Notes: a model not told the origin generated them from the sequence alone. A stretch of 64,000 bases of DNA from a virus (IMGVR_UViG_3300028832_000096), one strand, 5' to 3'. Shown: positions 9,303-61,476, counted from the stretch's first letter. Numbers and translations are program-made.

Positions 9303-9521
9303 TTAATCGACAATCTCAGAACCATAGCCATCTACGACATCTTCCCAAGCTGTCGAACCATTCCATTCGACTTTAGAATACCGATGTGTTGTATTATGAG
9401 GATTTCCATCCTTATCATATTCCATAAGTATAAAATAATCACCTTCCTCTGAAAGCTCTATATGGCCTCCATCTTTAAGTGTCGCCTTGTAAGTTTTACT
9501 TGCTTTTATGTATCTCTTCAT
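9303..9521 (-). CDS. Hypothetical protein with MKRYIKAS leader
   Basis: 72-aa ORF with the shared N-terminal tag. Confidence 0.7.
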   Translation of the reverse strand: MKRYIKASKTYKATLKDGGHIELSEEGDYFILMEYDKDGNPHNTTHRYSKVEWNGSTAWEDVVDGYGSEIVD

Positions 9522-9549
9522 AATTCAAATCTTCTTTATGTTAAACACA

Positions 9550-9957
9550 TCAAGTGCTTAACATATTATAAAGTTCTTCTGTTTCATACCTGTCATGAAT
9601 TAAATAACCGTCGTGTTTATCGCCGTCACCCATCGGACCTACAATTGCGTCATTTGGAAATTCATCTCTTACGAAATCTTCATCAACAGGGTCATAGCAA
9701 GGAGCATAGATAGGATTAGCCCAGATATGCTTTACAAATGTTGTAGGAAGATAAACAGGGTCGCCTAAACCATATACAACTACTTCGCCATCAAATGTAT
9801 CATCTTCAACTATATAGTCTTCATAGTTGCGAGCCTTCCAGTCGATACTCCTCCAAAGCTCCTTTTCTTCTTCAGTCCATTTACCTTTGAACTCAGGTTC
9901 CCAAGTATATGAAGCTTTTACATAACTCTTAGGATATACTCTGTTTGTCTTTTTCAT
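9550..9957 (-). CDS. Acidic hypothetical protein with YVKAS leader
   Basis: Likely start is ATG 9957 (AGGAG RBS): MKKTNRVYPKSYVKAS. Confidence 0.7.
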   Translation of the reverse strand: MKKTNRVYPKSYVKASYTWEPEFKGKWTEEEKELWRSIDWKARNYEDYIVEDDTFDGEVVVYGLGDPVYLPTTFVKHIWANPIYAPCYDPVDEDFVRDEFPNDAIVGPMGDGDKHDGYLIHDRYETEELYNMLST

Positions 9958-9968
9958 ATCAATTCTCC

Positions 9969-11861
9969 TTATGACTGTATAATACACTCAGGTGCAATTC
10001 GTAATGCAGCTCCTGCGGTACTAGGTTCATTGTATCGTGCGAATGAAATATAATTAAAACATTCGGGGTCACAATCATGCCATTTAATAACTGGATTAGC
10101 AGGTGAACCTGCATCAAAATAGGTTATTCTATCATCACATTTCTGAATAACATTTACAATCTCCATTACTGTAGGCTTCTTGTTGAACTGCGAATTAGCT
10201 GGAGCAAAATAAAGTGCTAATGCTTCCTTTGCTTTATTGATAATAACAACGCCAACATCTTCTGTTACCGGTCTATTTGTATAAATCTGACCTACTACAT
10301 AGAAGTCAAATACACGACAGGAACCAAACTGCATTTCAACTGAAAGTGCTTGTAATGGCTTGAAGTCTGCAATGACGTTATCAATGAACATCTGCGGAGG
10401 TCTATATCTTGTGAAACTAGATGCATTTGAAATCTTAGCTACGTCAATCTGACCTTGTCCCCAGATATCATCTTGGAAATCATTGTGAATAGCGAAGCAC
10501 ATTGCTGTATATGTTTTGAAGTTAGTGTCGAATACAAACTTATTAGGCGATTTTTCATCAAACTCTAAACTTAATGCTTTAGCCCAATCAATTCCGGTTA
10601 CAGAACCTAATGCGAAATCTCTATTTGTGATATACATCTTTGACTTCTGACTTGCGGTTAAGTTCTTGTCGTTGTAAATTGCTAAGTTGATTTCAAGTGC
10701 TTTTTGACAATCAATAACTACTCCGCAATCTACACCAGCTTCTCTTCTCAAGAATCTCGTGTAGTCAGGAAGGGTAACAAGGCTGTCCCAAGTATTGATG
10801 TGGTCTCTACTGTTGAAATATGCTTCCTTAGCAGTTTCAGGAGAACGACCAGTTACTGTATAAGTATGCGGAAGTTCTACTGTGTTAGAAAGATTTGAAA
10901 GAAGGATTTCTCCTGCTTCATAACTCGGATTACCTGTTTTAGCAAAAATAAGATTCTCTAAGACATCAGTACCAACACAGCCAATTACTCCTGAACAATC
11001 AATCCAGAAGATAGTTAATACGTAACCGCTGTAGTTTGAAAGTTGATTCAGATAGTTAGAAATTGTAATCTGAGCATTTGAATAGTTATCATAAGTGACG
11101 CAATAACGAGGTTCTGATGTATTAAATTCTGCTACATTTGCAACCTGAATCCACTGCGTCCTGTCAAATGTGTTAGATGAAGATGATGTCTTACCTTTGA
11201 CCCAAACCGCTGTAGTATCTACATGCTGGGAAGGCAAGGTAATGATATAGTTATTTTTAACTACATCCTCGACTGATACTGAATAACTTCTGAGCTCACC
11301 CTCTATAGCAACACGAGTTACCGATTCACCGGATTTTAATGCAACAGCATCAGATTCTGCAAAGACATCAATATAATCAGTCAATACACTTCTTCTGCTT
11401 CTACTTTCATTGTTTCCGTAGCTACTTGTTAAAGGTAACAAGTTATAGGTAATTACTCGAGAAGTATTTGTAATATCTGTGTAGGCGTTAAGTGTGCAGA
11501 AGTTAGAGCCATTAAATCCAAAATCAAGATTCAATGTGTCTGAAGTATTGTTAGTGATTGTAACTTCTGTTCTTGCTGCAGTATAGAAACCTAAGTCGTA
11601 TCCGATGAGGCCAAATATCTTCTCAGCATCTTTCCTCTGCATTACCGAGGGCGCAAAAAGCTCATTAGCCAAGTAATCAGTATTGACGCCAATGATATCA
11701 GCTGCCGATGCTAATAACTTACCTAGAACTACACCAGGGTCAGCATCTGCTTCAGGTTTCCACAAATCTGTGAGTTTAGGAACTAATTCCCAAAACTCTT
11801 CCATTATAGATTGATAATCTCTACTTGTATAATTGATGAGACCACGGTTTGTATCTTCCAT
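9969..11861 (-). CDS. Baseplate J / T4 gp6-like wedge protein
   Basis: INYTSRDYQSI, W...DPGVVL, GYD...AAR and ET...LVTLxDY motifs; sits after the gp25-like gene. Confidence 0.85.
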   Translation of the reverse strand: MEDTNRGLINYTSRDYQSIMEEFWELVPKLTDLWKPEADADPGVVLGKLLASAADIIGVNTDYLANELFAPSVMQRKDAEKIFGLIGYDLGFYTAARTEVTITNNTSDTLNLDFGFNGSNFCTLNAYTDITNTSRVITYNLLPLTSSYGNNESRSRRSVLTDYIDVFAESDAVALKSGESVTRVAIEGELRSYSVSVEDVVKNNYIITLPSQHVDTTAVWVKGKTSSSSNTFDRTQWIQVANVAEFNTSEPRYCVTYDNYSNAQITISNYLNQLSNYSGYVLTIFWIDCSGVIGCVGTDVLENLIFAKTGNPSYEAGEILLSNLSNTVELPHTYTVTGRSPETAKEAYFNSRDHINTWDSLVTLPDYTRFLRREAGVDCGVVIDCQKALEINLAIYNDKNLTASQKSKMYITNRDFALGSVTGIDWAKALSLEFDEKSPNKFVFDTNFKTYTAMCFAIHNDFQDDIWGQGQIDVAKISNASSFTRYRPPQMFIDNVIADFKPLQALSVEMQFGSCRVFDFYVVGQIYTNRPVTEDVGVVIINKAKEALALYFAPANSQFNKKPTVMEIVNVIQKCDDRITYFDAGSPANPVIKWHDCDPECFNYISFARYNEPSTAGAALRIAPECIIQS

Positions 11862-11906
11862 CGAAACTCTCCTATTATTAATATACGTACATAAATATAA
11901 AAAAGG

Positions 11907-12371
11907 TTACGTCTCTGAAATACTCCAACCAGAATAGTTAACTGTAAGCTTTGTTTCTGTAGGCATTACAGAATTCAAATCTATATTGAGTTCCTTGCCG
12001 AATGTAGTTTCCATAATTACTGTCATATTGATTTCATTAGCTTGTGTTGCACTATTTAAAGTGCTTGTATCACCAGTAACTAATAATCCATCAGTAAATG
12101 AGGTGTTTTCAGCAACTACATCAGGTTCATAATCACGTAACTGAGCTACAATTCTATCTTTTATTAAAGCTCTTTCATTTTCAGAATTATATTTCCATAA
12201 ATGACGTTTTAATCCTACACCAAATTTAATGTTGTTATATAACTCTGTAGGTTCTGTTAAGATGAGTAACCTAGAACGCGTAGTAACAGCTTTGAGGTCT
12301 TCATCTACTGCTACTTGATTGTTTGTCAAGTTAAACATATTTGGAAAAGATAATGAAGTTGTTTCAGCCAT
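11907..12371 (-). CDS. Baseplate wedge subunit, gp25/GpW-like
   Basis: LLILTEPTEL...FGVGL...I...LRDYEP, the gp25 pattern. Confidence 0.8.
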   Translation of the reverse strand: MAETTSLSFPNMFNLTNNQVAVDEDLKAVTTRSRLLILTEPTELYNNIKFGVGLKRHLWKYNSENERALIKDRIVAQLRDYEPDVVAENTSFTDGLLVTGDTSTLNSATQANEINMTVIMETTFGKELNIDLNSVMPTETKLTVNYSGWSISET

Positions 12372-13223: not shown

Positions 13224-15065
13224 TCACTTTATATCTGATGAATACTTGCCGTAGTTAACTATGTTTAATACAGTCTGTCCTTTCCATCCACTAAGATTAA
13301 TAGGATAACATTCATTAGACTTAACGCCTGACGTAACTACCTTTGTATTTATAATTCTTATGCGGCCCCACTTAATAATGTTAATCTTTCCATCAGATTT
13401 CTTCTGACCCCAAACAGAACCTGCATTGTTATCAATATGGTCGCATATAATACACGAAATATATGAACCATTCTTTAACTGCGCTACAATTACATCACCG
13501 ATAGAACCATATTTAGGTCTAACTGCTACGCAATAATAAGTGCCTACAGTAGCAATTCCTCTGTTTTGAGGACAGCCTTGACTGTGCCACAACTTAGCTA
13601 ACTTCTGTTGAGCAGAACCGCTTGACCATTGTGAATACATATAAGAATAATTGAGATAATCATCCATTATGCCTGTCTGCTTGATGGAAGTAGAAATTAC
13701 TACATCTTTAACTCCGGTCAATTTTTTGCCATTGATATTTGTCATTGATGTAGGGTTGCCAACAATACTTGTTTTAGAAATTACTATATCTTTAAAAATT
13801 TCTTTAGCATATTTCTTTGCGTTAGATATAGCTGTTTTAGAATCTACATATTCATTGTATTCTGACATGATAAGTTCAGCGCTTTTTTCGGCACCTGCCG
13901 ATGTATTTGCTTGAGATTTGAGGTCAGGTATTAAATCAAAATTAGCTTCTAAATCATAAGCAAAGTAGGCTATCTGTCCTGATAAATCCTCTTTCCACAC
14001 ATTCTCATCATCAATGAATTCGTATAAATCATAGAGATGCGCTATGTCCCAAGCAGCAATTCCGTATAGATAGCTACCGTCCACCATACCATCACTTATA
14101 TAATCCGGCTTAAGTCCAGAATACGCTTTGAAACAAGCAGCAATTGCAGCTGCAGACGAAGCAGGTAAACCGCACTCATCAATAAAATAATCAACGCAGG
14201 TTTTAATATTGCCTTTCAGCTTGCTTGTATCTACTTTAGCTTGACCTGAAATGTAAGGCGGAAAATTATTATATAACTCGCCTAAAGCAGAAGTATAATT
14301 GATTATGGAAATTGCAATGTTTGAAGAACTATCTGACAAATTGTATTTACTATTTAAGTAACCTACTTGCCTTGCGGTCATATCATGCCTATCATTAGCA
14401 TCTTGATAGAGTGGACTTAATACATTTACAATAGTATCTTTTTCAACCTCTCCACTTTTATCTACTTTGCCGCCCGCAAGATAATAAGAAATATCATCAC
14501 CCAACTTTTCCCAAGCAGGTCTAGTATAACCATTTATAGAGCTGTGATTTGTTCTATATTTGCATCGCTTACATTTATTGGTATTTGAACCTGCATTACC
14601 TTCTATGGTATGTACCCACCAAGTGCCCGCCCTATCTTTAGCACAGTATTCTACAATACCTACGTGATAACCACTGCTTTTTCCATGATAACCTGAGTTA
14701 CCAAAAGAAATAACGTCGCCAGCAATAGGTTTAGGGCTTCCTCCACCATTGTAAGGTCCAGGTATCCAAGTGCCCCCATGATGTCTGATGCTTGCTATTA
14801 ATCCACCAACACCTGCTTTGATATCCATAAGATTCTTACTGTTATTTTTATTACCTGCGATTTTAGCTTTTTTAGCACAAGCAGATACTGTAAGCGCACA
14901 CCAAGCAGTAGGCCCGTATCCTGTTAATGAATATATTTCCTTTAACTTATCATTAGCAGCAACATTAGTTGTCTTTTTCTTGCCTTTTTTAACAGTCTTA
15001 TCTCGAGCCCCAATAAAATGTCTGGCTGCTTTTACAAATTTTTCTAAATGAGGAGCGCCTGCCAT
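13224..15065 (-). CDS. Virion-associated peptidoglycan hydrolase: CHAP + tail-lysozyme-like + 3D-like domains
   Basis: AWCA...HVGIV...TIEGN CHAP motifs; AAIAACFKAYSGL...YGIAAW lysozyme-like segment. Confidence 0.75.
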   Translation of the reverse strand: MAGAPHLEKFVKAARHFIGARDKTVKKGKKKTTNVAANDKLKEIYSLTGYGPTAWCALTVSACAKKAKIAGNKNNSKNLMDIKAGVGGLIASIRHHGGTWIPGPYNGGGSPKPIAGDVISFGNSGYHGKSSGYHVGIVEYCAKDRAGTWWVHTIEGNAGSNTNKCKRCKYRTNHSSINGYTRPAWEKLGDDISYYLAGGKVDKSGEVEKDTIVNVLSPLYQDANDRHDMTARQVGYLNSKYNLSDSSSNIAISIINYTSALGELYNNFPPYISGQAKVDTSKLKGNIKTCVDYFIDECGLPASSAAAIAACFKAYSGLKPDYISDGMVDGSYLYGIAAWDIAHLYDLYEFIDDENVWKEDLSGQIAYFAYDLEANFDLIPDLKSQANTSAGAEKSAELIMSEYNEYVDSKTAISNAKKYAKEIFKDIVISKTSIVGNPTSMTNINGKKLTGVKDVVISTSIKQTGIMDDYLNYSYMYSQWSSGSAQQKLAKLWHSQGCPQNRGIATVGTYYCVAVRPKYGSIGDVIVAQLKNGSYISCIICDHIDNNAGSVWGQKKSDGKINIIKWGRIRIINTKVVTSGVKSNECYPINLSGWKGQTVLNIVNYGKYSSDIK

Positions 15066-27338: not shown

Positions 27339-27767
27339 TTAACTATTTTCTAAATCGGCAAGTTGTGCCTTTGCTTCGTTGTCATTTCTCCAATCTGCGT
27401 AGCTACCTACATAGTAGAAACCGTCTGCTACTTCACAAGCCTGATTATCATGACACATGCCCTCTAAGGCACCAAGAATTGTATACATGTCAAAATCTTG
27501 TTCTTCAGATTCTTGTCCGAAATGAAGTGTATATGTATCAGAGAATCTATCAGGATAAGTGCTTTTGAGTAATTCTGCAACACTAGCTAAACTGAAAGGC
27601 TTTTCTTCATCTGCAATTCGCTTTGAGATAATCCAGCCAGTACATAATTCCTGAATAGCATCTCCGCAAAGTTCTTTCTCATCCTTGCCGAAGTACCACT
27701 GACGTGCATCGGATAACTTTGATGCTTTGACATAATTTGAAGGATATTTTGTATAAGTTCTTTTCAT
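27339..27767 (-). CDS. Hypothetical protein with YVKAS leader
   Basis: MKRTYTKYPSNYVKAS; has its own class A promoter at 27807-27812. Confidence 0.75.
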   Translation of the reverse strand: MKRTYTKYPSNYVKASKLSDARQWYFGKDEKELCGDAIQELCTGWIISKRIADEEKPFSLASVAELLKSTYPDRFSDTYTLHFGQESEEQDFDMYTILGALEGMCHDNQACEVADGFYYVGSYADWRNDNEAKAQLADLENS

Positions 27768-32904: not shown

Positions 32905-33074
32905 ATGCTACCTCCTAGTGGACTCTTGATGTGTGGTAGAATTGCCATAATGATATTATAATTATAAGATAGGTTAGTAGAAATTAAAAGAGAATCTTTT
33001 AAAAATTCTCTGATTATTTGAAAATTAATAAATAATTAATAAATTATCATTTATTATTATAACGATTTAAACAT

Positions 33075-33170: not shown

Positions 33171-33187
33171 GATGTATATAACGATTT

Positions 33188-33526: not shown

Positions 33527-33545
33527 TGTTGTGATTAAGTTATGA

Positions 33546-40688: not shown

Positions 40689-41138
40689 TTATAGTAATCC
40701 GCTATAATTAGTCATCTCATGAAACTCTTCATCTGAAAGATTCATACTTCTTGCCCATTTAGGTTTTCTTCCAGATTTAATATAATCAATATAATCAATA
40801 TAATCTAACATTGATTCATAGTCGCAATCACCGCTAGCAGTCCATGAATTATGACGATTGAAATCTTCCTTTACTTCAGGAGACAAAGATTGATACCATT
40901 TTTCAAATTCAGGCTGCTTGCTTAATCCCCATTGATACTTGGCTTCATATTCATCTACACAAGCTATAGCTTCTTCTAAAGTATCAAAGTCTTCTCCACA
41001 GCACCACTGGTTGTCTCGGTCAAGGTAAAGTGCATCATAACGAGCACCCCAGGAAAAATTAACTTTCTCCACTTTACCCCTACCGCTAGCCGTAGTATAA
41101 ACAATTTCATCTCTACTAGCTTTTACATAAACTTTCAT
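40689..41138 (-). CDS. Hypothetical protein with MKVYVKAS leader
   Basis: ORF with GGAG RBS and the tag. Confidence 0.75.
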   Translation of the reverse strand: MKVYVKASRDEIVYTTASGRGKVEKVNFSWGARYDALYLDRDNQWCCGEDFDTLEEAIACVDEYEAKYQWGLSKQPEFEKWYQSLSPEVKEDFNRHNSWTASGDCDYESMLDYIDYIDYIKSGRKPKWARSMNLSDEEFHEMTNYSGLL

Positions 41139-41141: not shown

Positions 41142-41453
41142 TTATCTCCTCTGAATTAATGCGTAACAAACAGATATGTTTCTACCAGCATCTTCCTGAT
41201 AAGTTAATTCCAAATATTGATTCGGCTTATAATCATCTATAAACACAGGAACTCTCCATCCGTCAACGGGTCGCTTATTTTGCGCTTTCGCCTCGTTATA
41301 TTTTTCTTTAAGCCAATCCGAACATTCGTCATAAGAACCCTGAAATTCGATATCCGAATTCCTTACGGGTTTCTTAGCAAGAAGATATCCCATTGAAGGG
41401 ACTTTCACTATTGCATAAGCTCGTAAGGCAGACGCTCTGATATACCTCTTCAT
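41142..41453 (-). CDS. Hypothetical protein with MKRYIRAS leader
   Basis: Likely start ATG 41453 (AGGAGA RBS) rather than TTG 41528. Confidence 0.7.
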   Translation of the reverse strand: MKRYIRASALRAYAIVKVPSMGYLLAKKPVRNSDIEFQGSYDECSDWLKEKYNEAKAQNKRPVDGWRVPVFIDDYKPNQYLELTYQEDAGRNISVCYALIQRR

Positions 41454-41547: not shown

Positions 41548-42540
41548 TTAAACTGGTTTTACTAATGTACGAACGTGGAGTCGCTGGATATTATATCCTC
41601 CGGCAAGTATTGATTCTACTCTTGCTTTACCGTCATCTCCAACAACATAACCATTGAGAACAGCACCCATATTACCTTGAGTTACATGTAAACCTGACCA
41701 ATCTCTTACAGGTCCTGTTATTTTTGTTACACGCTTAAGTAAATCGAGAATTAAGTGTTCACCGTCTCTCTGGTTCTGTGCATGAATTTGTTCATCAGTC
41801 ATATCCCACAAACTTCTTGCGTAATTAAGCGAACCAAACATTGCTTCAAAAGGTTCGATAATATATTCGGATTTAAATTTCTTTTCGCGAGTCAGTCCCC
41901 AACCACTCTTAGGAAGGTCAGGATATAATTCTTCTAACTTAGCTTGTTCTACTTCCCATCTATTCCAACTATTAGCACCTTCATAAAGAATTTCATCAGC
42001 CCTTTGCTTAAGTTCTCTATAATAAGGTTTAGATTCATCGCGTATACGCTTATCATGTGCGTCCCATCTTGCAATGATATCATTCATGAATTCTTTAAGG
42101 CATTCTGGAATTCTATCTATCTCATCATTAGTAGACTTAATCTTATCTAACTTAGCATTGTAATTATCAATGACTTGCTTAATTTCTTTGATGCCTTGGT
42201 TAGACGTATAGATAGATGCTGCATCGTCATCAATGCTGTAAAGCGCTTTACCATACTTGTCATCATAAGTGAAGTGATACTTATCAACAAGTCTCCAAGT
42301 ATTGACATCTATATCAGCAGGTACACGATACTTATCATGTTCCTTAACGTATTCAAGATAAGGTACAAGAGCATTGTAATCACTATCATCAATGTTACCT
42401 TTAAGCAATGCTAACTTCTTTGTAATGGCTTCTTCTTTCTTCTGAATCCAAGCCTTTTTCTTGTCGAGTTCAGCTTGCTTCTTAGCAATCTTCGCTTGCA
42501 AATCAGCGATATTTGTTACAGATTTAACGTAAACTTTCAT
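41548..42540 (-). CDS. Coiled-coil protein with C-terminal AGGYNIQRLHxR motif; MKVYVKSV leader
   Basis: LNGYVVG...ESILAGGYNIQRLHVRTLV, a motif recognisable from phage proteins of unknown function. Confidence 0.75.
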   Translation of the reverse strand: MKVYVKSVTNIADLQAKIAKKQAELDKKKAWIQKKEEAITKKLALLKGNIDDSDYNALVPYLEYVKEHDKYRVPADIDVNTWRLVDKYHFTYDDKYGKALYSIDDDAASIYTSNQGIKEIKQVIDNYNAKLDKIKSTNDEIDRIPECLKEFMNDIIARWDAHDKRIRDESKPYYRELKQRADEILYEGANSWNRWEVEQAKLEELYPDLPKSGWGLTREKKFKSEYIIEPFEAMFGSLNYARSLWDMTDEQIHAQNQRDGEHLILDLLKRVTKITGPVRDWSGLHVTQGNMGAVLNGYVVGDDGKARVESILAGGYNIQRLHVRTLVKPV

Positions 42541-42596: not shown

Positions 42597-42917
42597 TTAT
42601 GTCCAAGCAGCAGCATCATCAGCATGCACAATTTCTAATGCATTCATAATATCATCAAACAATTTATCTGCTTCTTCAACGGATAAATCGTCCCAATCTT
42701 CGGCTGCTTGACATTTATAATCTCTGATAACACTAGATACTCTTCCGCCTACAGGAGATTCTCCGTGGTAATCAAATTTACCATACTCCTTGTTAACTTC
42801 TCTTAAACAAGAACTAACTAAGTCGTATTTATCATGGTCAATAGTAGATAAGAATCTCTGTGCTTCTTTAATCTTGTCAAAATCAGGCCACTTGTTAGAT
42901 TTAATATACATTTTCAT
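42597..42917 (-). CDS. Hypothetical protein with MKMYIKSN leader
   Basis: ORF with the tag. Confidence 0.7.
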   Translation of the reverse strand: MKMYIKSNKWPDFDKIKEAQRFLSTIDHDKYDLVSSCLREVNKEYGKFDYHGESPVGGRVSSVIRDYKCQAAEDWDDLSVEEADKLFDDIMNALEIVHADDAAAWT

Positions 42918-43360
42918 GATAATTGTCCCTCTAAATCGTTCATAATATATCTTTCAAAGATTTTGTAGAATTTAGTAAGGTCAGAATAACTGCTGATTAT
43001 AACCTTATAAGTTCCCCACTGTGAATTGTTATAGTTTGTCGCTTCTCCGAACCCTTGCTTCTTACATTCTTCAAGTAAAGGATATGTATCTTCCTTATCA
43101 CTTATCTTAATTACGCAAGGATAACGGTCTCCAGAAGAACCAGAATATAAAGCTCTAGGCACTCTAGATGATGTATCTGTAACACCTACTAGTATACAAA
43201 CATCAGCAAATGGTGTATTTTCTGCAAGACTGTATGAATAACGCTTAGAGCCTTCAAGAAACTCTTTTCTAGCTACATATCCATCAAATACAAATTCAAC
43301 AGCTTTGCAAATATCTTCTTTAGAAGAAAATGAATTAGATGCTCTAATGTATCTTTTCAT
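42914..43360 (-). CDS. Hypothetical protein with MKRYIRAS leader
   Basis: ORF with GGAG RBS and the tag. Confidence 0.75.
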   Translation of the reverse strand: MKRYIRASNSFSSKEDICKAVEFVFDGYVARKEFLEGSKRYSYSLAENTPFADVCILVGVTDTSSRVPRALYSGSSGDRYPCVIKISDKEDTYPLLEECKKQGFGEATNYNNSQWGTYKVIISSYSDLTKFYKIFERYIMNDLEGQLS

Positions 43361-43672: not shown

Positions 43673-44794
43673 TTACAGATACATGAAAAGTTCTGCACCG
43701 CCATCTTTTGCTAAATCATCAAACCAATTATCCGGAGAAAAATCGCAGATAACTCCATCTGTAAGATTACGAACTCTAATGAAATATCCTTTGTTGGCAT
43801 ACTCATTTATGGTTTCATTAAGTGCAGATATATCAGAAGTTTCATAAGATTCTGCTAAACCTCTAAGCTGTTCATCGTAGTAACCTTCAACGAGGAAATC
43901 ATCATTTAACTCAGGGTCAGAAGAACCATTTACCATATTAGCGAAGTACTTTGTATCAGTTGAACAGTTAACATCTCCGCAAGCATCAACTGAATTATCT
44001 TCAACCCAGAAATCCTTGCCGTAAACAGCATCTACAGGAGTATATCTTCCGCTGAACTCCCAAGAAAGCAATCTATTATCAGGAGTTACTATATAGGAAG
44101 TCCACCAATTACCTGAACCGGATTTAGGTTCAAATACATCACCTTCTCCGGATGTATAGTGGAATTCATAACTATCACCATCTTTAAAGACTAATTTCTT
44201 ATCAGGAATAGTGTAACTGGAAGCCTTGATGTCGTCACAAGCATCTACTCCAAAAACTCTATTATAAAGTGCTTCAAACTCCTCTGAAGTCATTTCTTCA
44301 TCATAGATTGCAAGAAGTTCTTCGGCTGTTGCTTTCTCAGTAATTTCTTCTGCATCACAGAAATCAAGATTCATATACTTATCGTTGTCTTCAAGCATAT
44401 CTAAAACATTTCTCTGAAGGACTTTTCTAGATAATACTTTTGTTCCATCAGGTTTTGTGGTATAACTTTCGCCATTATATCTGCTGAAATGATAAGTCTT
44501 TGATGCTTTGATATCTCCACAAGCTTCGACATCTTCGCAAGGAACAACATCTCCGTCCTTCTGGCAGTAACCTATCTGGTCAAGATACCTGTTGATTTCT
44601 GTCTCAGAAGGAATATCATACTGCTTGAGCTCATCTGCAGTTAAGAACCTATCAAGCCAAACCGCTGTGTAGTAGTTGGGCAAGTCCTTAGACCTAATAA
44701 CATTTACATCTTTTGGAAGTGTTCCAGGGCCAACACCATGCTTAAAAATGTAGAGATAACCATTATTTGAACTTGATTTAATATAAACTTTCAT
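43673..44794 (-). CDS. Multi-module acidic protein (putative polyprotein) with a DarA C-terminal-like first domain
   Basis: MKVYIKSS leader; GPGTLPK...RFLTADELKQYDI; three V[ED]AC[GD]D[IV]x[AC]S linkers. Confidence 0.7.
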   Translation of the reverse strand: MKVYIKSSSNNGYLYIFKHGVGPGTLPKDVNVIRSKDLPNYYTAVWLDRFLTADELKQYDIPSETEINRYLDQIGYCQKDGDVVPCEDVEACGDIKASKTYHFSRYNGESYTTKPDGTKVLSRKVLQRNVLDMLEDNDKYMNLDFCDAEEITEKATAEELLAIYDEEMTSEEFEALYNRVFGVDACDDIKASSYTIPDKKLVFKDGDSYEFHYTSGEGDVFEPKSGSGNWWTSYIVTPDNRLLSWEFSGRYTPVDAVYGKDFWVEDNSVDACGDVNCSTDTKYFANMVNGSSDPELNDDFLVEGYYDEQLRGLAESYETSDISALNETINEYANKGYFIRVRNLTDGVICDFSPDNWFDDLAKDGGAELFMYL

Positions 44795-46195: not shown

Positions 46196-46543
46196 TTAGT
46201 TGTAATTAGTTTCATCACCTTCAGAGTAGCATTTAGGACAATAGCCTCCGTCAGTTAACCTTGTTCCACATTCAGGACATCTTGCGATATCTTGACCTTC
46301 TAATGGTTGCTCATTGAAATCAGGAAGTTCTTCTACATCATTAAGCAATTTCAAATATGCACTCTGTTTAAGCTTTAATCTAGCTTTCGCTTGAGATAAT
46401 ATATTTGATTTTGCTTTTGCTTCACTTACAGCATTTGAATAGAATACAGCATCGCGGATAAGTATATTGTTGAACTGGTCCGCGATGCTTCCTTCATATA
46501 TGTATCTGTTTGATTTAATGTAGATTTTCATTGGAAACATCAT
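46196..46543 (-). CDS. Hypothetical protein with MKIYIKSN motif and C-terminal Zn ribbon
   Basis: CPECG...GYCPKC. Confidence 0.7.
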   Translation of the reverse strand: MMFPMKIYIKSNRYIYEGSIADQFNNILIRDAVFYSNAVSEAKAKSNILSQAKARLKLKQSAYLKLLNDVEELPDFNEQPLEGQDIARCPECGTRLTDGGYCPKCYSEGDETNYN

Positions 46544-46817: not shown

Positions 46818-47938
46818 TTACTGAATATCTTCAGGCTTAAGATAGATTGCACGAGAAATCTGGAAGGTGCAGGTAACATTTACCAGTCCGCCATCCTGAG
46901 ACATTTCGCCGTTGTTGAGTGAAGAAATCCAAGTACCAGGGCACTTAATAACGTCTCTTGCCTGTCCGCCAGTACCATCGTACTTAATAAAGTAAACTTG
47001 TCTCATATACTGAGAAGGAAGTCCTAAGCACTCTGTGAGCGGGTCATATACCTGCTTTCTCCAAGCTCTAAGAGCTTCAAGAACATTAGGTGTTGTGTAG
47101 CAGTTAAGTGTCCAAGAAACGTCATTGTAGCTGATTTTCTGAGGGAACTTAATCAAGCCGTTACCATAATGAACAGTAATTGCGTCCTGAGACTCTTCAA
47201 TTGCGCCAACTTCCTGTGTAGAAAGTGTTAACATATCAGAGAACTCAGCAGGGCTGGAACCATCCATGTTATAGATTCTGATTTCGAAGTTGTTCTTGTA
47301 CAATGTCGATAGGTAAGTCTATTGTATCAATGTTTCTGACTTTTCCCCCGACCCACACCGGACATGAGACTTTCACCTCATCCGGCGTTCCATCGTATTT
47401 ATAATTACTTCGAATCTAATATAAACACGACTAAAGGCCATCACTCCGCTAAATTATTATCAGTAGCATCATCGCTTCGACCTTAGCTTTTCAGTATTAG
47501 TTAATTAGCTTATTATTCTTCGACTAAACGCTGAACGCCTAATACCTTTCCTTGTTCCGAAGATTCTATCTTTGCATATATCTTTAGGTGCTTGCTTTGC
47601 ATAAAATAATTGAATATTAGATTTTTCTAATATATAGGATTTCATATTCCGCAATTTACTTTCCTACATTATTGTTATACGTTCATTCGCAAGTTCGTCA
47701 GCCTATTAGACATTCTCACCATGGATATTTTATAGACTCCCGACATTCTTTGCCGACTTCACCGAGCTTTATACATAAGTACTATGCATATCGGATATTA
47801 GAGAAATTACTTAATAATTTTCGAATCTTCAGTTCACCCTTAAGTGCTTAATCTTTTCAATTAAGAACAAGTCGCACGCGGAACATATGAATCAACACCT
47901 AACATATGGTTGGTGCCCATAGCTAATGGGGTGAACAT
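46818..47938 (-). CDS. Tail tube protein (T4 gp19-like), spliced: exon 1 47878..47938, exon 2 46818..47302, 181 aa
   Basis: Exon 1 is MFTPLAMGTNHMLGVDSYVP after AAGGAGG. Joining CCGC|TGTAC gives ...YVPLYKNNFEIRI in frame. I.V.YGN..IKFP, W..QVYD and PGTWI tube motifs. Confidence 0.85.
47303..47877 (-). mobile_element. ORF-less group II intron (bacterial class B-like), 575 nt
   Basis: 5' GTGCG; DV ACGCCGGATGAGGTGAAAGTCTCATGTCCGGTGT (47355-47388); DVI with bulged A at 47310; 3' AT; EBS1 GCGGAA (47647-47652) complementary to IBS1 TTCCGC. Confidence 0.9.
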
Positions 47939-48075: not shown

Positions 48076-49752
48076 ATGCCCACAGGAATACCAGAAAAAC
48101 TCAAGCCATGTAAGATATGTAAAGAAATGTTTTTACCTGCAACTCCATCACAAAAGATATGCAAGAACTCACACTATGCGAATTGTCCAATATGCAATAA
48201 ACCTATGTTATGGAATACTACTAGAGCACCTGAACCTTGCTCCAAAGAATGTCGAAAAGAAAAAACAAGAAAATTCTATCAAGAAAAGTACAATGTAGAC
48301 CATCCAATGAAAAATGCAGAAGTTAAAAAACATTTCCAGGAAGCTATGAAAAAGAAATATGGTAATGAACATGCTTTACAATGCAAAAAATTTAAAAATA
48401 AAGCTATAGAAACGAACCGAAAGAAATTCGGAACAGATTGGGCATTGAGCAACAAAAATGTTCAAGATAAAAGAAAACAGACGATGTTAGATAGATATGG
48501 AGTTGAATGCCCTTTCAATATGAAAGACTATCAAGAAAAAGTTAAAACAACCTCTAATAAAAAATATGGTGTAGACCATCCATCTAAATCAGAATCGGTT
48601 AGAGAAAATATGAAGCGAGGTATGTTAGATAGATATGGAGTTGAATTTCCATCTCAAAACAAAGAAATATTAAGTAAAATGCAAGCAAAAAGGGCTGCTC
48701 ATATGGATGAGATTGTAGAAAATATTAGGGCAAGCTTTATACAAAAATATGGAGTACCTAATTGTTTTCAATCAGAAGATATCAAAGAAAAAATTGTTAA
48801 AACATGCATAGACAAATATGGATTTCCAAGTGCAATGCAAAGTGAAGAAGTTAAGAAGAAAGTATCTCAAACGATACGGGAAAGATATGGTGTTAATTGG
48901 TTTGTTCAATCTGAAAAATATCTAGATGCGCATTCGTATATATCTAAAGTAGCGCAACAATTTGCTAATAGATTAATTAGCCGAAACATACCTATATCAT
49001 ATGAATTTCCGTTAGATTCTTATAGATATGATATAAAACTAAATAATACACTAGTAGAAATTGACCCAACATACACTCATAGCATCTTAGAAAATCACTG
49101 GGGTCCAGGTTTAGATAAAGATTATCATAAAAATAAAACCGATGTAGCAAATCAAGCTAGTTTCAAGTGTGTCCATGTATTTAGTTGGGACTGCCAAGGA
49201 AAGATTATAAACATACTTAATCCTAACAAGATATGTGTAGATGATAGTGAATTACAAATATACGTGCTCAACAAAGCAGCAGCTACTAGATTTCTCAACA
49301 ATTACTCAATCCAAGGTAATTATAATAAATCAGCATATTACATAGGGCTAGTTAAAGATGATATTATTTATCAATTGGTAGCAATAGGTAAATCTAGATA
49401 TAATTCTGAATACTATGCCGAAATAACTAGATGGCAAACAAACCCTAACTACAAAATATCTAATGGATATTCTAAGATATTAAACTTTATACAATCAGAT
49501 GAATTCTTATCAGTTAAAAATGTAGTGTTGTACTATGATAAATCTAAACAATTCGAGGACGACATTACGACAAACATGGAGTATGTTCATGATAATCCTC
49601 CAATAATGATATGGTCTGACCAAGGAAACAAATTTATAACAGATAGAATATTTAAACAATATGGATATAAAGGAATTACTAATGAATTAGATATGATAAA
49701 AATGGGTTGGCGTCCTGTATATAACTGCGGATACAGTGTTTATAAGATTTAA
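48076..49752 (+). CDS. Free-standing putative homing endonuclease (Zn fingers + 9 KYG repeats + PD-(D/E)XK/Vsr-like + C-terminal domain)
   Basis: CKIC, CPIC and CSKEC; ~23-aa (K/R)YGV..P repeats; YDIKL...VEID...YHKNK...VHVF.WD; GGAGG RBS; the only long + strand gene. Confidence 0.75.
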   Translation: MPTGIPEKLKPCKICKEMFLPATPSQKICKNSHYANCPICNKPMLWNTTRAPEPCSKECRKEKTRKFYQEKYNVDHPMKNAEVKKHFQEAMKKKYGNEHALQCKKFKNKAIETNRKKFGTDWALSNKNVQDKRKQTMLDRYGVECPFNMKDYQEKVKTTSNKKYGVDHPSKSESVRENMKRGMLDRYGVEFPSQNKEILSKMQAKRAAHMDEIVENIRASFIQKYGVPNCFQSEDIKEKIVKTCIDKYGFPSAMQSEEVKKKVSQTIRERYGVNWFVQSEKYLDAHSYISKVAQQFANRLISRNIPISYEFPLDSYRYDIKLNNTLVEIDPTYTHSILENHWGPGLDKDYHKNKTDVANQASFKCVHVFSWDCQGKIINILNPNKICVDDSELQIYVLNKAAATRFLNNYSIQGNYNKSAYYIGLVKDDIIYQLVAIGKSRYNSEYYAEITRWQTNPNYKISNGYSKILNFIQSDEFLSVKNVVLYYDKSKQFEDDITTNMEYVHDNPPIMIWSDQGNKFITDRIFKQYGYKGITNELDMIKMGWRPVYNCGYSVYKI

Positions 49753-52009: not shown

Positions 52010-52339
52010 TTATTTTCCCTCATATCGCATACAACCAACCCATTTCTTAAAACCTAATTTTTCATACCAAGATGTAAGTTGTTGTACTGTCATTGCTTTA
52101 TTACCTATAGGTGCGGGCTGTAGTTCAATCGGTACGTTAAGATAATCTGCAATCTGAATAATCTTATGCATTAACTCCGTACCTATACCTTGACCTTGCT
52201 TATCTTCATCTACTTTAATACCGTGCACCCAAATACACGGATTTTTAGGGTTATCCATAGACCAACAAAGAACACCACCATCTACTTTGATTTCATATTT
52301 TTTATAAAAATCATAAGATGATTTAATGTACCTTTTCAT
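52010..52339 (-). CDS. GNAT acetyltransferase with MKRYIKSS leader
   Basis: IKVDEDKQGQGIGTELM...WYEKLGF acetyl-CoA motifs. Confidence 0.85.
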   Translation of the reverse strand: MKRYIKSSYDFYKKYEIKVDGGVLCWSMDNPKNPCIWVHGIKVDEDKQGQGIGTELMHKIIQIADYLNVPIELQPAPIGNKAMTVQQLTSWYEKLGFKKWVGCMRYEGK

Positions 52340-53323: not shown

Positions 53324-54850
53324 TTACATCATACCTCCACCCATTCCGCCTTCTTCACCGCTCTTTAAATCAACACCCCATTTCATTACATTGGAGCCGG
53401 TTTGAGGTAAGGACTGTGACAAGATTTCAGTTATTGCTTTCTTATATGCTTCAGGGTCATTGATACCTAAGTTCTTCATAAGGTCAGATATTGATGCAGC
53501 TTGATTGATGGAAGAATCACGCTTATCAAACTGTACCTGGTCCATATTAGTGATAATAGGGCTCATGTTGAGAACAAATTTATCAACGAAACCACTCATG
53601 TTTCTAGACAAGAAATACTTATTAAGTGCATCTCTCCAGCCGTTCTTATAAGCGGTTTCAATTCTTAATAAGTGGTTAGCATAAAGAGCAGACCTCTGTG
53701 ACATTACTGCGCCTGCTCCGCCTAATCCTTCAGCAGATGAGAAGTTCATTGCTTCCTTAGGAACACCAAGAACAGATAACTTCTTATCCTGATAATAGTT
53801 AAGAAGTTTGTTCTCACTTTCGGTAGGCTCACCCATGTTGAGGTCTGTAATAGAAACTGCGTCCTGACCGTTTACCTTTGCAAGATAAATCAAGTTATTA
53901 GGGCTCTGTGGATTGACGAAGCTCTCCGCATTACCTGTAGCAGTATTGAGTGCTAACTGCTGCTCAATCATGTCCTTGATTACCTGTAAATTCTGCCTGA
54001 TTTCATCTTCCTCTGTAGTCGTACCACAATCTACATTGACGAATCTGACAGTACGAGTAAGTGATGAAAGCAACATTGCATCTTCAAGAAGGCTTAATGT
54101 TTGTGTAGGCTGTACTGCTTGCGACAAAATAGGTTCAGCGAACTGAATATCATAATCAACAGATTCACCTTTAGAGTTAACACCTGAAATATGATACTTA
54201 CCTAACAAGCCTCCTAATGAGAAATGAATAACAGATGATTCAGGATAACTAATAATCGTATCGCCTGAAAATGACGCAGAATTAGGGTCAGATGACGCCT
54301 GATAGATATAGCCCTGAGGTTTTCCTTGATACCATAAATGAACAATGTCTTCGGGTGGTATCATATAAGACGGGATAATATCATAATCGAGATTAAGTAA
54401 TGTGTTATCGTCTAGCGAAACTAATTCTCTATTTTGATGTACTCCAGGGCCTCTATAAATTTCTGTTGTAGGAATATAGACCTGACCAATTGTTGCTAAT
54501 TCAAGAATATGGTCTCTTGCGTAGTCATTTACCTTCCAACGCTTAAAACACTGATTGATAATGTCAGCTACCTGCTGTAAATCTTCAGATACAGCAGTAG
54601 CCCAGATAACATCACCACCTGTATTAGGCGTTGTAGCATCTGTTGCATAATATGATAATGCGGTGCTTATTTGAGAATCTCTTGCAAGTGCACGCATTAC
54701 ATTTATTTGTGTTCTAATATCTTCAATATCAGAATCTCCGCGAAGGTCTGATATCTTATAGAAAGTACCACCTACACATACAGTACTTCTTAATCTAGAT
54801 ATTGTATTGCCTTTACGGGGTCCAAATAATCTGTCTAACCATCGAGCCAT
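53324..54850 (-). CDS. Portal protein (T4 gp20-like)
   Basis: DSQISTALSYYATDAT, LLEDAMLL..LTR..RFVNVD.G and LGVPK; lies downstream of TerL. Confidence 0.85.
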   Translation of the reverse strand: MARWLDRLFGPRKGNTISRLRSTVCVGGTFYKISDLRGDSDIEDIRTQINVMRALARDSQISTALSYYATDATTPNTGGDVIWATAVSEDLQQVADIINQCFKRWKVNDYARDHILELATIGQVYIPTTEIYRGPGVHQNRELVSLDDNTLLNLDYDIIPSYMIPPEDIVHLWYQGKPQGYIYQASSDPNSASFSGDTIISYPESSVIHFSLGGLLGKYHISGVNSKGESVDYDIQFAEPILSQAVQPTQTLSLLEDAMLLSSLTRTVRFVNVDCGTTTEEDEIRQNLQVIKDMIEQQLALNTATGNAESFVNPQSPNNLIYLAKVNGQDAVSITDLNMGEPTESENKLLNYYQDKKLSVLGVPKEAMNFSSAEGLGGAGAVMSQRSALYANHLLRIETAYKNGWRDALNKYFLSRNMSGFVDKFVLNMSPIITNMDQVQFDKRDSSINQAASISDLMKNLGINDPEAYKKAITEILSQSLPQTGSNVMKWGVDLKSGEEGGMGGGMM

Positions 54851-54886: not shown

Positions 54887-56455
54887 TTACTTAAGGAATT
54901 TTTCAAGGTCTGCGTCTATCTGATATCTAGCGAAGAATGCAGATTCATCAAACATCGGAATATCTAATTCCCTTGCGGCCTGAATTGCTAATCCATCAAT
55001 ATTCTCTTTAATATCACCAACAACTACACACTGAACTTTCTTGTCGAAAGCAGTTACTACATCTGCAGAATAACTGTTGAAAATAGCAGTAATATCTTCT
55101 AAGCTTCCGTGCATGAATGTTCCGGTAATCATGATGCGCTTATTTCTAAGAATAGGGTCGCCATCAAATTTAACAATTCTATCTCCTTCAATAACCTTAA
55201 TCTGGTCAGAGGACATGATTGTATCTAATTCTACGAGGTTTCTAGGATTATTCAACCAGTTGTTGAACCTGATAGGCAGGTCCATATCAAGCTCTGTTCT
55301 AATTCTACGAGGACCCTCTAAGTAATACTTAACTGTCTTGTAGTTGTTATTGCACTTGTTGCAGAACTTAACAAGCCACTCCCTGCTCATTCCTACATCG
55401 CCATCAATACTTGCAAGTATGATTTCAGATAAATGCTTTTCAATCTTGATATCTTTATACTGAGGTAAAATAAGTAAGTCAGGAAGTATCTGGATTTCAT
55501 GCTTTTCTAACAACTCATCAAATATGTTAGTGGGCAATTCAGGCAGACCTAATATCTTACAGAACCTTGTAACTCTAGGATACAATCTAGATATGCAGAA
55601 TTCGTCAGAACAAACCATAGGACCAGATTGAGGGACATCAAGAATCTTACCGCAATATGTACATACAGAACGTCTAGATAATCTATTGCTATCCTCCTGT
55701 GCTTGTGTACTACTCCAAATTACCTTGTTACCTTCAAGAACAATCTGAGAATCTTTCTGAATATTAAATGCTACAGCATCAGGATAATCCATTGTAAGTG
55801 TAACATTATCACCATACACAACGCCATATTTAATATAACCGTCATGGTCTGTAAATCTCTGTGGTGTTTCAATTACTTTAGCTGTTGTTAAGTCTGTTGA
55901 ATGGAATACGCCTTTGTTCTGTCCTTCAAAGACAATAAAGCCAGCTATAAGAGGATATTCAAAATGAATATAAGAATTTCCTGTGATATATGTTTTGAGT
56001 GTTTCTGCTGTTGCATCATAAGGAACTGCCCAACAAGGAAGCGATTCAAAACCAACCATCTTTGTCCAAGCCTGCATAGATGAAGGTGTTATTTGCATTG
56101 CGCCGCTTTCTACAGCACCTACATAGAATCTATATCCAGGAGTTCCTGATTTCATATCAGCTACAATGGAGTCAAATTCGCAATCAGGAAGAATTCCTTG
56201 TTTAGCATTAATCTTAGGAGAATAGAAAACACCAATAATATCGGTAGTGCCTCCATGAAGCTTGATTGAGTTAGGAACTAAGCCCTCTTTAACAATCAGC
56301 TTCAGAAATTCTTCTCCAAGGTCAGTTTTAACATTGATGCCCTGATACACTTTGTGAAGTATTCCATGAACATCATAACGAAGTGTAGCAAGAAGACCCA
56401 TAGGCACGATATAAGCTAACGAACCTGGAGTACAAACGGTTTTTGTGAACAGCAT
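54887..56455 (-). CDS. Degenerate NAD+-dependent DNA ligase-like protein with Zn finger and BRCT
   Basis: LigA domain order (adenylation-like, OB, CTYCG...CSDEFC, BRCT with ITGT...VVVGD...ARELDIP), but VPMG in place of KxDG. Confidence 0.65.
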   Translation of the reverse strand: MLFTKTVCTPGSLAYIVPMGLLATLRYDVHGILHKVYQGINVKTDLGEEFLKLIVKEGLVPNSIKLHGGTTDIIGVFYSPKINAKQGILPDCEFDSIVADMKSGTPGYRFYVGAVESGAMQITPSSMQAWTKMVGFESLPCWAVPYDATAETLKTYITGNSYIHFEYPLIAGFIVFEGQNKGVFHSTDLTTAKVIETPQRFTDHDGYIKYGVVYGDNVTLTMDYPDAVAFNIQKDSQIVLEGNKVIWSSTQAQEDSNRLSRRSVCTYCGKILDVPQSGPMVCSDEFCISRLYPRVTRFCKILGLPELPTNIFDELLEKHEIQILPDLLILPQYKDIKIEKHLSEIILASIDGDVGMSREWLVKFCNKCNNNYKTVKYYLEGPRRIRTELDMDLPIRFNNWLNNPRNLVELDTIMSSDQIKVIEGDRIVKFDGDPILRNKRIMITGTFMHGSLEDITAIFNSYSADVVTAFDKKVQCVVVGDIKENIDGLAIQAARELDIPMFDESAFFARYQIDADLEKFLK

Positions 56456-59649: not shown

Positions 59650-60027
59650 TTATTTTAACTCTACCTTATAGCGATACAATCCATCCATAGACTTTATCGG
59701 CTCTGTTATAATAAATCCAGCATCTTCTATTATATCAGCTATTTCATTCTTAGCATAATTATCTGCTATCTTGACTAATTTTCTAGGTAAATACTGGCGC
59801 TTAAATGTATAATCTACATTATCAATATCTTTCCCAGCAAGCTTATATAAATCAATTTTATCGCTCCATTTTTCTGTATCAGGTGCTACCCATATAGTAA
59901 TCCAATTCTTTCCAGAAGAAATACTTACAGTAACTGAATCAATACCTAAAATATTGCATATTTTCGATTCAATTAATCTTTCTATATCATCAAATGCATC
60001 ATACGATGCTTTTACAAATATCTTCAT
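59650..60027 (-). CDS. Hypothetical protein with MKIFVKAS leader
   Basis: ORF with AGGAG RBS and the tag. Confidence 0.75.
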   Translation of the reverse strand: MKIFVKASYDAFDDIERLIESKICNILGIDSVTVSISSGKNWITIWVAPDTEKWSDKIDLYKLAGKDIDNVDYTFKRQYLPRKLVKIADNYAKNEIADIIEDAGFIITEPIKSMDGLYRYKVELK

Positions 60028-60030
60028 AAC

Positions 60031-60210
60031 TTACTCCTGGCTGCCCATTAAGTCAAACATTACTACACTGAGATTTGCAATGTTATCTTTTGCGATTACA
60101 TCATCTTTATCACAAGTAGCAAGAATGTCGATTGCAGCTTTGATATGCTGCTGAGCGTCCTTATAGTTCTTTGACGCGTTGATTGTTTTCTTTGACTTCT
60201 TAATCTGCAT
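60031..60210 (-). CDS. Small protein (59 aa, not in the ORF track) with MQIKKSKKTINAS leader
   Basis: AGGAGG RBS; fills the gap between neighbours exactly. Confidence 0.7.
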   Translation of the reverse strand: MQIKKSKKTINASKNYKDAQQHIKAAIDILATCDKDDVIAKDNIANLSVVMFDLMGSQE

Positions 60211-60211
60211 A

Positions 60212-60730
60212 TTATTTATTCCTCCTATATGTAGGTGTTATAATACCACTAATAGCTTTGCGAAGTTTATCTTCATCGTCAATTGCATATACATTATTGG
60301 ATACATAGGAAAGCATCTTATCTATATACTGATTAGGAGTAAGTATTCCTTCTGTTGATATAGTTGCTTTGTAATTTCTCTTGAAAAATTTTAAGAAAAT
60401 AGCAACCCAATTATCTGCATAACTATCTATGTCAGTTGAATCAATTGATGTATAAGCAGTTCCTGGAAGATTGATTATTTCAATCTTATTATCAAAAGGA
60501 GAATAAATCTCAGGAGTAACTCCTAATTTATCAGAAATCTTGTCAGCTACCTGCAGTGCAATATCAATAAAATTGACCGCATTTGCTAAATCTTTATCAG
60601 AAATATCTTCTTTAGTAACTCTATTAATTAAAAGCTTTGCACCTAAATCTGCAGGTCCTTTTAAATAAGATTTGAGTTCAGATATAACTGTATTACCTGC
60701 TTCTGTAGTAGATTTGATATAAATTTTCAT
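60212..60730 (-). CDS. Hypothetical protein with MKIYIKST leader
   Basis: ORF with GGAGG RBS and the tag. Confidence 0.75.
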   Translation of the reverse strand: MKIYIKSTTEAGNTVISELKSYLKGPADLGAKLLINRVTKEDISDKDLANAVNFIDIALQVADKISDKLGVTPEIYSPFDNKIEIINLPGTAYTSIDSTDIDSYADNWVAIFLKFFKRNYKATISTEGILTPNQYIDKMLSYVSNNVYAIDDEDKLRKAISGIITPTYRRNK

Positions 60731-60747
60731 ATAAACCCTCCAAGTAA

Positions 60748-61080
60748 TTATATTAGTCCTTCAGCTTTTAAAGCTTCATACATTTCAATAACGCCTAATG
60801 CAAAATCTTTACTTGCGTCAAGATTTCCGTTAACTGCATCATTGTAAAATTGCTCAGCGTAGCCTTCCTGTCCTACATGAAGCGTTCCTTGTATCCTATC
60901 ATACTTGTCTTGAGCAAAACCAAAGAGGGCTTCTTTACCATCATCAGTCATCTCATCTAATATTTCAGGAATTGTGAGCTCACCCTCAGGGTCATATCTA
61001 GAAAGAATCTTATCTATAACATAAGTCTCGTTGTTATCATAAAGTATGTTGTATATCTGAATGAATTCATCTGTGCTCAT
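60748..61080 (-). CDS. Acidic hypothetical protein
   Basis: ORF with AAGGAG RBS. Confidence 0.7.
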   Translation of the reverse strand: MSTDEFIQIYNILYDNNETYVIDKILSRYDPEGELTIPEILDEMTDDGKEALFGFAQDKYDRIQGTLHVGQEGYAEQFYNDAVNGNLDASKDFALGVIEMYEALKAEGLI

Positions 61081-61092
61081 GGTTTATTCTCC

Positions 61093-61476
61093 TTAATAAT
61101 GTGACATCATTGGTTTAATATCCTTATTTAATCTTTGTAATTCAACTGCAACGGTATCTAATACAGCATCTACATATTCATAAGGAGTTTCATACATTTC
61201 GTCATCGTAGTCAGGGATTCTTCCTGTGCTAACTTCTTTACCTTTTTGAATATATCTTACCTGAAGCGGCTGTAAAGCTCCGATTTGTGCCCAAATATAA
61301 GGTGCTTCATCATAAGGGTGAATTTCAGATATTGTAGCTTTGAATTGGTCTAAATCCCCTAATTTATCGGCATCGACCATATGGCAACTAAACTTCTGTC
61401 TGCCCTGATTAAAAGATACATATTCGGTTAATTGCGAATTAAAATCCGAACTTGATTTAATATATCTTTTCATCAT
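61093..61476 (-). CDS. Hypothetical protein with (M)MKRYIKSS leader
   Basis: AAGGAGATATA RBS and the tag. Confidence 0.75.
   Translation of the reverse strand: MMKRYIKSSSDFNSQLTEYVSFNQGRQKFSCHMVDADKLGDLDQFKATISEIHPYDEAPYIWAQIGALQPLQVRYIQKGKEVSTGRIPDYDDEMYETPYEYVDAVLDTVAVELQRLNKDIKPMMSHY

Follow-up and report, generated by a model that had tools for sequence, protein, structure and literature searches.

A candidate T4-style capsid-targeting tag with a herpes-like Ala|Ser cleavage code on unrelated proteins of an uncultured phage

In phage T4, the internal proteins IPI-III and Alt carry a capsid targeting sequence (CTS) that is removed by the prohead protease gp21 (PMC9026906, PMC9958956). Ten residues of this leader suffice for the packaging of a foreign protein; positions 4 and 7 serve targeting, positions 8 and 10 cutting, and the protease cleaves after L/I-x-E (PMC9026906). 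In giant phages, gp21-related proteases (SPN3US gp245 and phiKZ gp175) process many head and ejection proteins (PMC10052503, PMC5694885), while the Dar and polyvalent proteins of phage P1 are head-packaged, processed and multi-module, a packaging signal having been shown at the N-terminus of DarB (PMC9024508, PMC5512222), and DarA is a processed head protein (PMC5512222). The herpesvirus assemblin (pUL26/VP24) cuts at release and maturation sites (PMC4498786). Here we analyze a 64-kb stretch of viral DNA (64,000 nucleotides of IMGVR_UViG_3300028832_000096; hereafter the window), which is part of a 79.8-kb virus record with its genes on the minus strand and comes from a phage with a T4-type capsid protein, head protease, portal and contractile tail. 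Many of its proteins, otherwise unrelated, begin with a tag of the form M-K-x-Y-[IV]-[KR]-[AS], and by analogy with T4 our verdict is that this is probably a system for capsid targeting and clipping in the style of T4, with an Ala|Ser code like that of herpesviruses. A literature search found no paper on this tag nor on an Ala-specific gp21-type phage protease.

The tag and its probable cut site

The tag is real. A sequence-only reading of the window had named 17 starts, and all of them are ATG starts on the minus strand. Thirteen fit the strict pattern M-[KR]-x-[YF]-[IV]-[KR]-[AS] (9521, 38949, 41138, 41453, 42540, 42917, 43360, 44794, 46531, 52339, 60027, 60730 and 61473), two (9957 and 27767) make up a long class, in which a longer basic leader places the site at residues 13-16, and those at 37024 and 60210 are variants of a shorter or looser form. 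For the 80 curated genes of the window, all on the minus strand, the strict count of 13 compares with means of 0.006 in shuffles within proteins and 0.12 in shuffles by column (20,000 of each), the latter keeping the bias of start positions. The broad pattern gave 18 matches against about 2.3 in shuffles; the one in 13224-15065 is not kept by orthologues and looks like chance. The 13 strict and 4 variant copies stand on unrelated bodies, as had been proposed, with the shared information ending at residue 8 (1.7 bits, against 0.5 at residue 9); residue 8, which lies outside the selection pattern, is mostly Ser, Ala, Asn or Thr. Conservation is also at the peptide level, as the same reading had held, since the codons in 57 tags follow genome-wide use and Ser is encoded by both TCN and AGY.

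Because the pattern was drawn from the window genes, related genomes provide the independent test. In five related records the DNA pattern of the tag had 14, 14, 24, 25 and 17 matches, all on one strand, and the reversed pattern had none in the same five. Other complete relatives hold between 0 and 4 matches, and in an AT-richer relative (27.6% GC) the motif is at background level only. The contig holds at least seven more tagged genes ahead of the window. In a 200-kb relative, about 33 genes carry a five-residue class, M-K-I-Y-[ACSG], in which the site is shifted while Tyr keeps position 4.

The T4 cut rule fixes the register of the site, so that the P1 position would be residue 7 of the strict tag. 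It had been suggested that the tag end, [IV]-x-[AS]-small, is a protease site, and the same site indeed recurs just beyond the window, in the capsid leader, in the scaffold and at the junction of protease and scaffold. Both the capsid gene (contig G000 3805-5250, locus L001, minus strand) and the protease-scaffold gene (G000 5290-6783, same locus and strand) are on this contig, ahead of the first window position. Across 39 capsid leaders there are 166 such sites compared with 39 after shuffling, and the last of them directly precedes the conserved mature start. In all 39 distinct capsid proteins of this Ala type, [IV]-x-[AG] stands before the mature start, while 6 of 6 distant relatives, of a Glu type, have [LMI]-x-E in the same alignment column; this column match is to the nearer Glu-type relatives, the known cut of T4 gp23 falling in another column because T4 has an insertion. 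The protease/scaffold junction reads [IVL]-[AS]-A-[SA] across the Ala type (in this phage I167-A-A|S170, conserved across Ala-type proteases) and has Glu sites in the others. Ala-type scaffolds contain 465 Ala sites versus 132 in shuffles, with Glu sites at chance, and in Glu-type scaffolds this is reversed (Glu sites 58 versus 17.5). Behind the neck gene, a conserved acidic gene starts with a basic leader whose end is an Ala site in 27 Ala-type sequences and a Glu site in five of the Glu type.

The tag follows the same rule. Its seven-residue frame ends in Ala or Ser in 14 of 14 cases on this contig and in Glu in 10 of 11 in a 272-kb Glu-type relative; a DNA pattern for the Glu tag finds 13 copies in that relative, and a search of three Ala-type records with it gave none. 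Five Glu tags are also present in the isolate Streptococcus phage GXN1, where the frame has eight residues. The comparison strongly supports the suggested protease site, given that the tag turns to Glu where the capsid and scaffold sites are Glu, and we consider it very probable, from these alignments, that the head protease of this phage would cleave the tag at its end, after Ala or Ser.

The head protease

The protease matches PF03420 (Peptidase S77) at 27.7 bits against a cut-off of 27 and phrog_207 at E 2.6e-20; its profile matches PDB 5jbl at E 6e-7, while a single-sequence search of PDB sequences gave no match. Its structural model (predicted local distance difference test score, pLDDT, 93) has T4 gp21 (5jbl) as the best fold match (Z 14.6, root-mean-square deviation 2.1, 134 aligned), followed by herpes proteases (Z 10.5 and 8.8; overall herpes range 6.0-10.5). 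The predicted triad residues H71, S126 and D150 are invariant and align with the T4 His, Ser and Asp motifs, and the Arg-Arg pair after the third triad position is not found in the protease, in which the third position is Asp. By these features it is an S77 member with a predicted change of specificity, and not an assemblin.

The motifs of the Glu-type proteases (the Arg in N-x-R-x-Y, a Glu before the His motif, and S-S-R-G) are altered in the Ala type, with Ile or Val instead of Ser after the catalytic Ser, mostly Leu or Met instead of Arg, and Phe or Tyr instead of Glu. We scored 131 proteases, drawn from clusters made at 50% identity. All 80 that have Ile or Val behind the catalytic Ser come with Ala-site scaffolds and 50 of the 51 that have Ser there with Glu-site scaffolds, so that this pocket residue predicts the type of site in 130 of the 131. 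The placement of the swapped residues in a putative S1 pocket rests on motif position and analogy. Since one well-supported branch separates the Ala type from the rest, these counts represent one switch seen many times rather than many switches.

The tagged genes and their setting

Comparison of gene families shows a tag that behaves as a movable part, grafted onto bodies in one family and swapped with the protease type in two. The 330-aa coiled-coil protein at 41548-42540 (strict tag 42517-42540) has 94 tagged orthologues, down to 42% identity, which differ by one residue in the distance from tag to body, and 24 distant homologues without a tag that begin where the tag ends; two of the untagged homologues are in siphovirus-like contigs, directly after tail and lysis genes. 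Bodies of BspA-type leucine-rich repeats (LRR) have an Ala tag in this phage (551-aa protein 37294-38949, strict tag 38926-38949) and a Glu tag in a Glu-type phage.

The 373-aa acidic polyprotein at 43673-44794 (strict tag 44771-44794) consists of four modules joined by three near-identical linkers, at residues 89-98 (44501-44530; a double site ending I-K-A-S), 183-192 (44219-44248; a double site of the same form) and 269-278 (43961-43990; ending V-N-C-S). It is the exception among the tagged bodies, which as a group show no enrichment of internal sites. In three relatives, what precedes module 1 (44615-44752) is either a tag or an Ala site inside the protein; in a Glu-type phage the module is flanked by a Glu tag and Glu sites. 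Its match to DarA_C (PF18789) is weak, with 13.2 bits here (E 0.011) and 20.5 in a Glu-type relative (E 3.3e-5) against a cut-off of 27, and in each of three records the sole DarA_C match, with a score under the cut-off, falls on this module.

All other tagged genes are likewise on the minus strand. As had been noted from the sequence, some are inserted in structural operons: the 72-aa protein 9303-9521 (strict tag, residues 1-8, 9498-9521) in the baseplate operon and the 109-aa GNAT acetyltransferase 52010-52339 (52316-52339) in the portal/neck operon. Further strict tags begin the proteins of 149 aa (40689-41138; tag 41115-41138), 103 aa (41142-41453; 41430-41453), 106 aa (42597-42917; 42894-42917), 148 aa (42914-43360; 43337-43360), 111 aa (46196-46531; 46508-46531), 125 aa (59650-60027; 60004-60027), 172 aa (60212-60730; 60707-60730) and 126 aa (61093-61473; 61450-61473). 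The body labels given earlier hold for GNAT and for BspA-type LRR, while the DarA-like label is weak and under the cut-off, as above, and the zinc ribbon of 46196-46531 is also weak (E 0.009). Long-class tags are found on the 135-aa protein 9550-9957 (9910-9957) and on the 142-aa protein 27339-27767 (27720-27767), the first gene behind a class A promoter motif at 27812. The 310-aa protein 36092-37024 has a short variant (37007-37024; site at residues 3-6), and the 59-aa protein 60031-60210 has a basic leader ending I-N-A-S (60172-60210), similar to one found at the start of the gene in the equivalent position of the 200-kb relative.

Two further candidates are weak. The 88-aa protein 37026-37292 begins with a helix, behind which stand two I-x-[SC]-small sites; a similar helix occurs in proteins of five relatives, by a weak profile seeded from these sequences. 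Together with L019 19283-21003 and L035 18834-19277, it points to a possible further leader class, in which an acidic-hydrophobic helix precedes Ile-x-Ser/Ala sites, sometimes after the usual tag. The 86-aa protein 62069-62329 starts M-K-I-Y-S and possibly belongs to the five-residue class. In genome G001, long arrays of paralogues of about 110 aa, each with a five-residue tag, lie among tail and baseplate genes (113286-116600 and 136568-148400; L062-L064), and a related domain is present at the end of the window protein 36092-37024.

The DNA of the 79.8-kb record is complete in a bovine gut metagenome, which may be its source, and partial in other gut studies; the listing of sequencing runs for virus DNA contained no RNA run. 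About 50 relatives were found, mostly of 120-250 kb, and gene counts in them are approximate, having been made with a simple gene caller of our own. Two are in bins labelled Clostridia, which hints at the host and no more. The nearest isolates, Bacillus phage HSE3, Listeria phage LIS04 and Streptococcus phage GXN1, are distant (capsid identity 24-28%).

Among the neighbouring genes, the T4-type portal gene (53324-54850, minus strand) is untagged. Between it and the terminase, a conserved 522-aa gene (54887-56455), with a weak NAD-ligase-like match at its C-terminus, is found in the Ala-type genomes compared. The tail tube gene is split by a 575-base group II intron without an open reading frame (47303-47877, minus strand); Rfam matches mark both of its ends and joining of the exons restores the tail tube frame. 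A homing-endonuclease-like gene of 558 aa (48076-49752, plus strand) adjoins this intron, and a large Cys-rich gene of that kind lies behind the capsid gene in many relatives (L003 11643-15482, L004 11705-13873 and others). The capsid gene of the 272-kb Glu-type relative (L053 9917-11762) has a stop after 298 codons and resumes further on, likely owing to an intron or a frameshift. A cluster at 31363-34633 of G001 (L058) resembles those for queuosine/7-deazaguanine biosynthesis, with a radical S-adenosylmethionine (SAM) match at 33105-33365.

Head loading, rival explanations and known systems

Several signs suggest that the tag directs a protein to the head besides marking where it would be cut. 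In the tags, Tyr4 and a basic residue at P2 are nearly fixed. At P4 of the 166 capsid-leader and 465 scaffold sites, Tyr does not figure among the common residues, so that the tag holds more than cutting needs. Membrane-like segments occur in none of 104 tagged proteins versus 43 of 631 untagged ones, about 7 being expected in the tagged set. The strict tag is absent, as had been observed for tail and baseplate genes of the window, from core tail, baseplate, packaging and replication orthologues among the matches listed, and the replication blocks of two complete relatives contained no match to the tag pattern. Soluble head cargo fits the membrane, tail and replication signs, without being proved by them.

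The tagged genes stand behind two upstream motifs, both of which also occur in three relatives. Class A (AACCTT-based; window 5118, 11908, 27812, 36080, 39664, 44836, 54888 and 59575) precedes structural operons, and class B (AATCGTTAT; 30721, 33066, 42580, 45949, 46817 and 63575) precedes replication and other genes. With each tagged gene assigned by nearest motif only, the ratio of A to B is 14/8 here, 43/10 in the 200-kb relative and 16/16 in another. An earlier caveat that some tagged genes lie behind class B thus holds, for 8 of 22 on the contig, and leaves the packaging reading unrefuted.

We propose that unrelated genes would gain the M-K-x-Y-[IV]-[KR]-[AS] start by grafting, and that its basic/Tyr part may bind the prohead core, most simply the protease-scaffold fusion, as T4 would suggest. 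A protease of the T4 gp21 type with a changed pocket would then cut after Ala or Ser in [IV]-x-[AS]|small, acting on itself, the scaffold, the capsid leader, the tags and the polyprotein linkers, sites that we identify by alignment and co-variation. The freed bodies, mostly acidic and soluble, would remain in the head, leave it with the DNA and act early in infection. On the T4 analogy, tagged proteins are probably packaged in the head, and we place similar trust in the mechanism as a whole, in which a removable leader would take the protein into the prohead for the head protease to clip. That the tag suffices for loading on its own we favor only slightly. Of the head-loading zip-code first put forward, therefore, the protease-site part is upheld by comparison, and the packaging part stands as the best reading, on the T4 analogy and indirect signs.

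A number of observations weigh against packaging by this tag. BspA-type LRR domains are usually surface adhesins. A third of the tagged genes here, and half in one relative, are behind the motif that precedes replication genes, and the number of tags spans 0 to 25 among complete relatives. The bodies are mostly acidic, in contrast to T4's basic internal proteins, and are no more acidic than untagged genes; only M-K-x-Y is shared with the ten-residue leader of T4 IPII and IPIII. The Ala-type proteases form one group, which makes the co-variation a single event, and the sites of the Glu-type relatives are themselves assigned through the T4 rule. A literature search found no virion proteome for this lineage or for GXN1, and no GXN1 paper. 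Finally, T4 gp21 is able to cleave a cytosolic host protein (PMC12991175), so that a site by itself does not prove a place in the head.

Other explanations must be set beside this one. M-K starts are common in AT-rich genes and Tyr is not kept in Glu-type tags, as would be expected if the tag were only a good protease site, with the proteins entering through their bodies or by bulk co-assembly and the leader serving as a spacer in which Tyr and Lys speed the cutting. A herpes release site, YLQA-T, even has Tyr at P4 (PMC4498786), and Tyr could thus be a preference of the protease. Against this, the core sites function without Tyr, and the five-residue class keeps Tyr at position 4 as the site moves; moreover, the bodies are unrelated, which makes a common loading route through them unlikely, and a grafted leader fated for removal would seem useless unless it were also an address. 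We regard this explanation as improbable. Still less probable is that the head protease cuts the tagged proteins in the cytoplasm, where cutting would be a late on/off timer or the proteins would be decoys for stray protease activity open to sensing by immunity. Enzymes of the cyclic-oligonucleotide-based anti-phage signaling system (CBASS) do sense T4 gp21 activity in the cytoplasm (PMC12991175), the class B motif precedes many tagged genes, and untagged homologues of 41548-42540 head apparent early operons in the two siphovirus-like contigs. However, tagged genes are wedged in head, neck and baseplate operons, in the 200-kb relative the structural motif precedes 43 of 53, diverse folded bodies would be superfluous in decoys, and an early function with a late-made tagged copy would fit delivery better than a late switch.

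A reading of the tag by some enzyme other than the head protease, whether a peptidase of the host or a modifying one of the radical-SAM maturase kind, is very improbable: shared leaders can serve as recognition sites, as in ribosomally synthesized and post-translationally modified peptides, but the last residue of the tag changes with the phage protease pocket and with the capsid and scaffold sites. A radical-SAM partner was rejected, with no match in two complete relatives that have 25 and 17 tags. Lys at position 2 and AT-rich starts are common, and gene starts can be recombination points, so the motif might be a by-product of start bias or of a gene-shuffling DNA cassette, with no peptide role; against this, the site recurs within proteins at module joints, and we give this explanation scarcely any weight. 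The AT-bias and cassette readings were rejected on the column shuffles (0.12 versus 13), the genome-like codons and the AT-richer relative without the motif.

As to the cargo, the proposal of a varied effector or anti-defence set fared less well than the cut site. Searches of PHROGs, Pfam and the ESM Atlas left most tagged bodies unnamed, both here and in 64 tagged proteins of relatives; with most bodies outside known families the word "anti-defence" is a guess, and some tagged proteins are conserved core genes. A mainly counter-defence role is conceivable, if somewhat doubtful. We think it unlikely that all bolder parts hold jointly, namely that the 5-8-residue tag is a complete loading signal, that a widespread lineage of gut phages uses it to keep the head open to a cargo of up to about 50 exchangeable proteins for injection and of polyproteins that clip apart, many of them anti-defence, and that a few changes in the pocket, converging on herpesvirus assemblin, turned the whole code from Glu to Ala, possibly under pressure from immunity that senses head proteases. 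If the packaging reading is true, the proteins injected by these uncultured phages could be listed from sequence alone, as a candidate set for host takeover and counter-defence, and the packaging tag would be shorter than that of T4. A change from Glu to Ala that arose naturally inside a single protease family, at pocket residues that can be named, would also open the specificity of gp21-type and herpes-type maturation proteases to direct testing and bear on the sensing of head proteases by CBASS.

The principle of a removable head-targeting leader is already known from T4, and the Ala|Ser code would be a variant of it. As with the T4 CTS, a short N-terminal leader stands on unrelated bodies, starts M-K-x-Y/F and ends in a head-protease site, and the phage shares a T4-type capsid, portal and protease and a hypervariable accessory set. 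Unlike in T4, P1 is Ala, Ser, Cys or Gly rather than Glu, the leader has 5-7 residues (or about 15) rather than 10, up to about 50 genes are tagged compared with 3-4, protease and scaffold are one fused protein, the bodies are mostly acidic, and the system is known from sequence alone. The leaders resemble those of giant phages in having several redundant sites; those phages, by contrast, cut after Glu, mostly remove propeptides of more than 100 residues and have no shared seven-residue tag (the phage G paper states no cut rule). The multi-module protein with its DarA_C-like module, a match under the cut-off, recalls P1 Dar, but the P1 proteins have no consensus leader, and unlike in polyvalent proteins the modules here are joined by head-protease-like sites and do not carry their own peptidase.

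With herpes assemblin the phage protease shares its fold, its fusion to the scaffold, a predicted release site just after the protease domain, a predicted cut rule of x-x-Ala|Ser/Thr (herpes release and maturation sites, YLQA-T and VQA-S) and a hydrophobic residue after the catalytic Ser (Leu110 in pseudorabies virus, Ile or Val here). It differs in having 7-14% identity, a Ser-His-Asp triad like gp21 instead of Ser-His-His, and no twin-Arg oxyanion loop, and herpesviruses have no such cargo tag. Given this triad, and that the nearest relatives are Glu-type phage proteases, the likeness to the herpes cut rule is most likely convergent.

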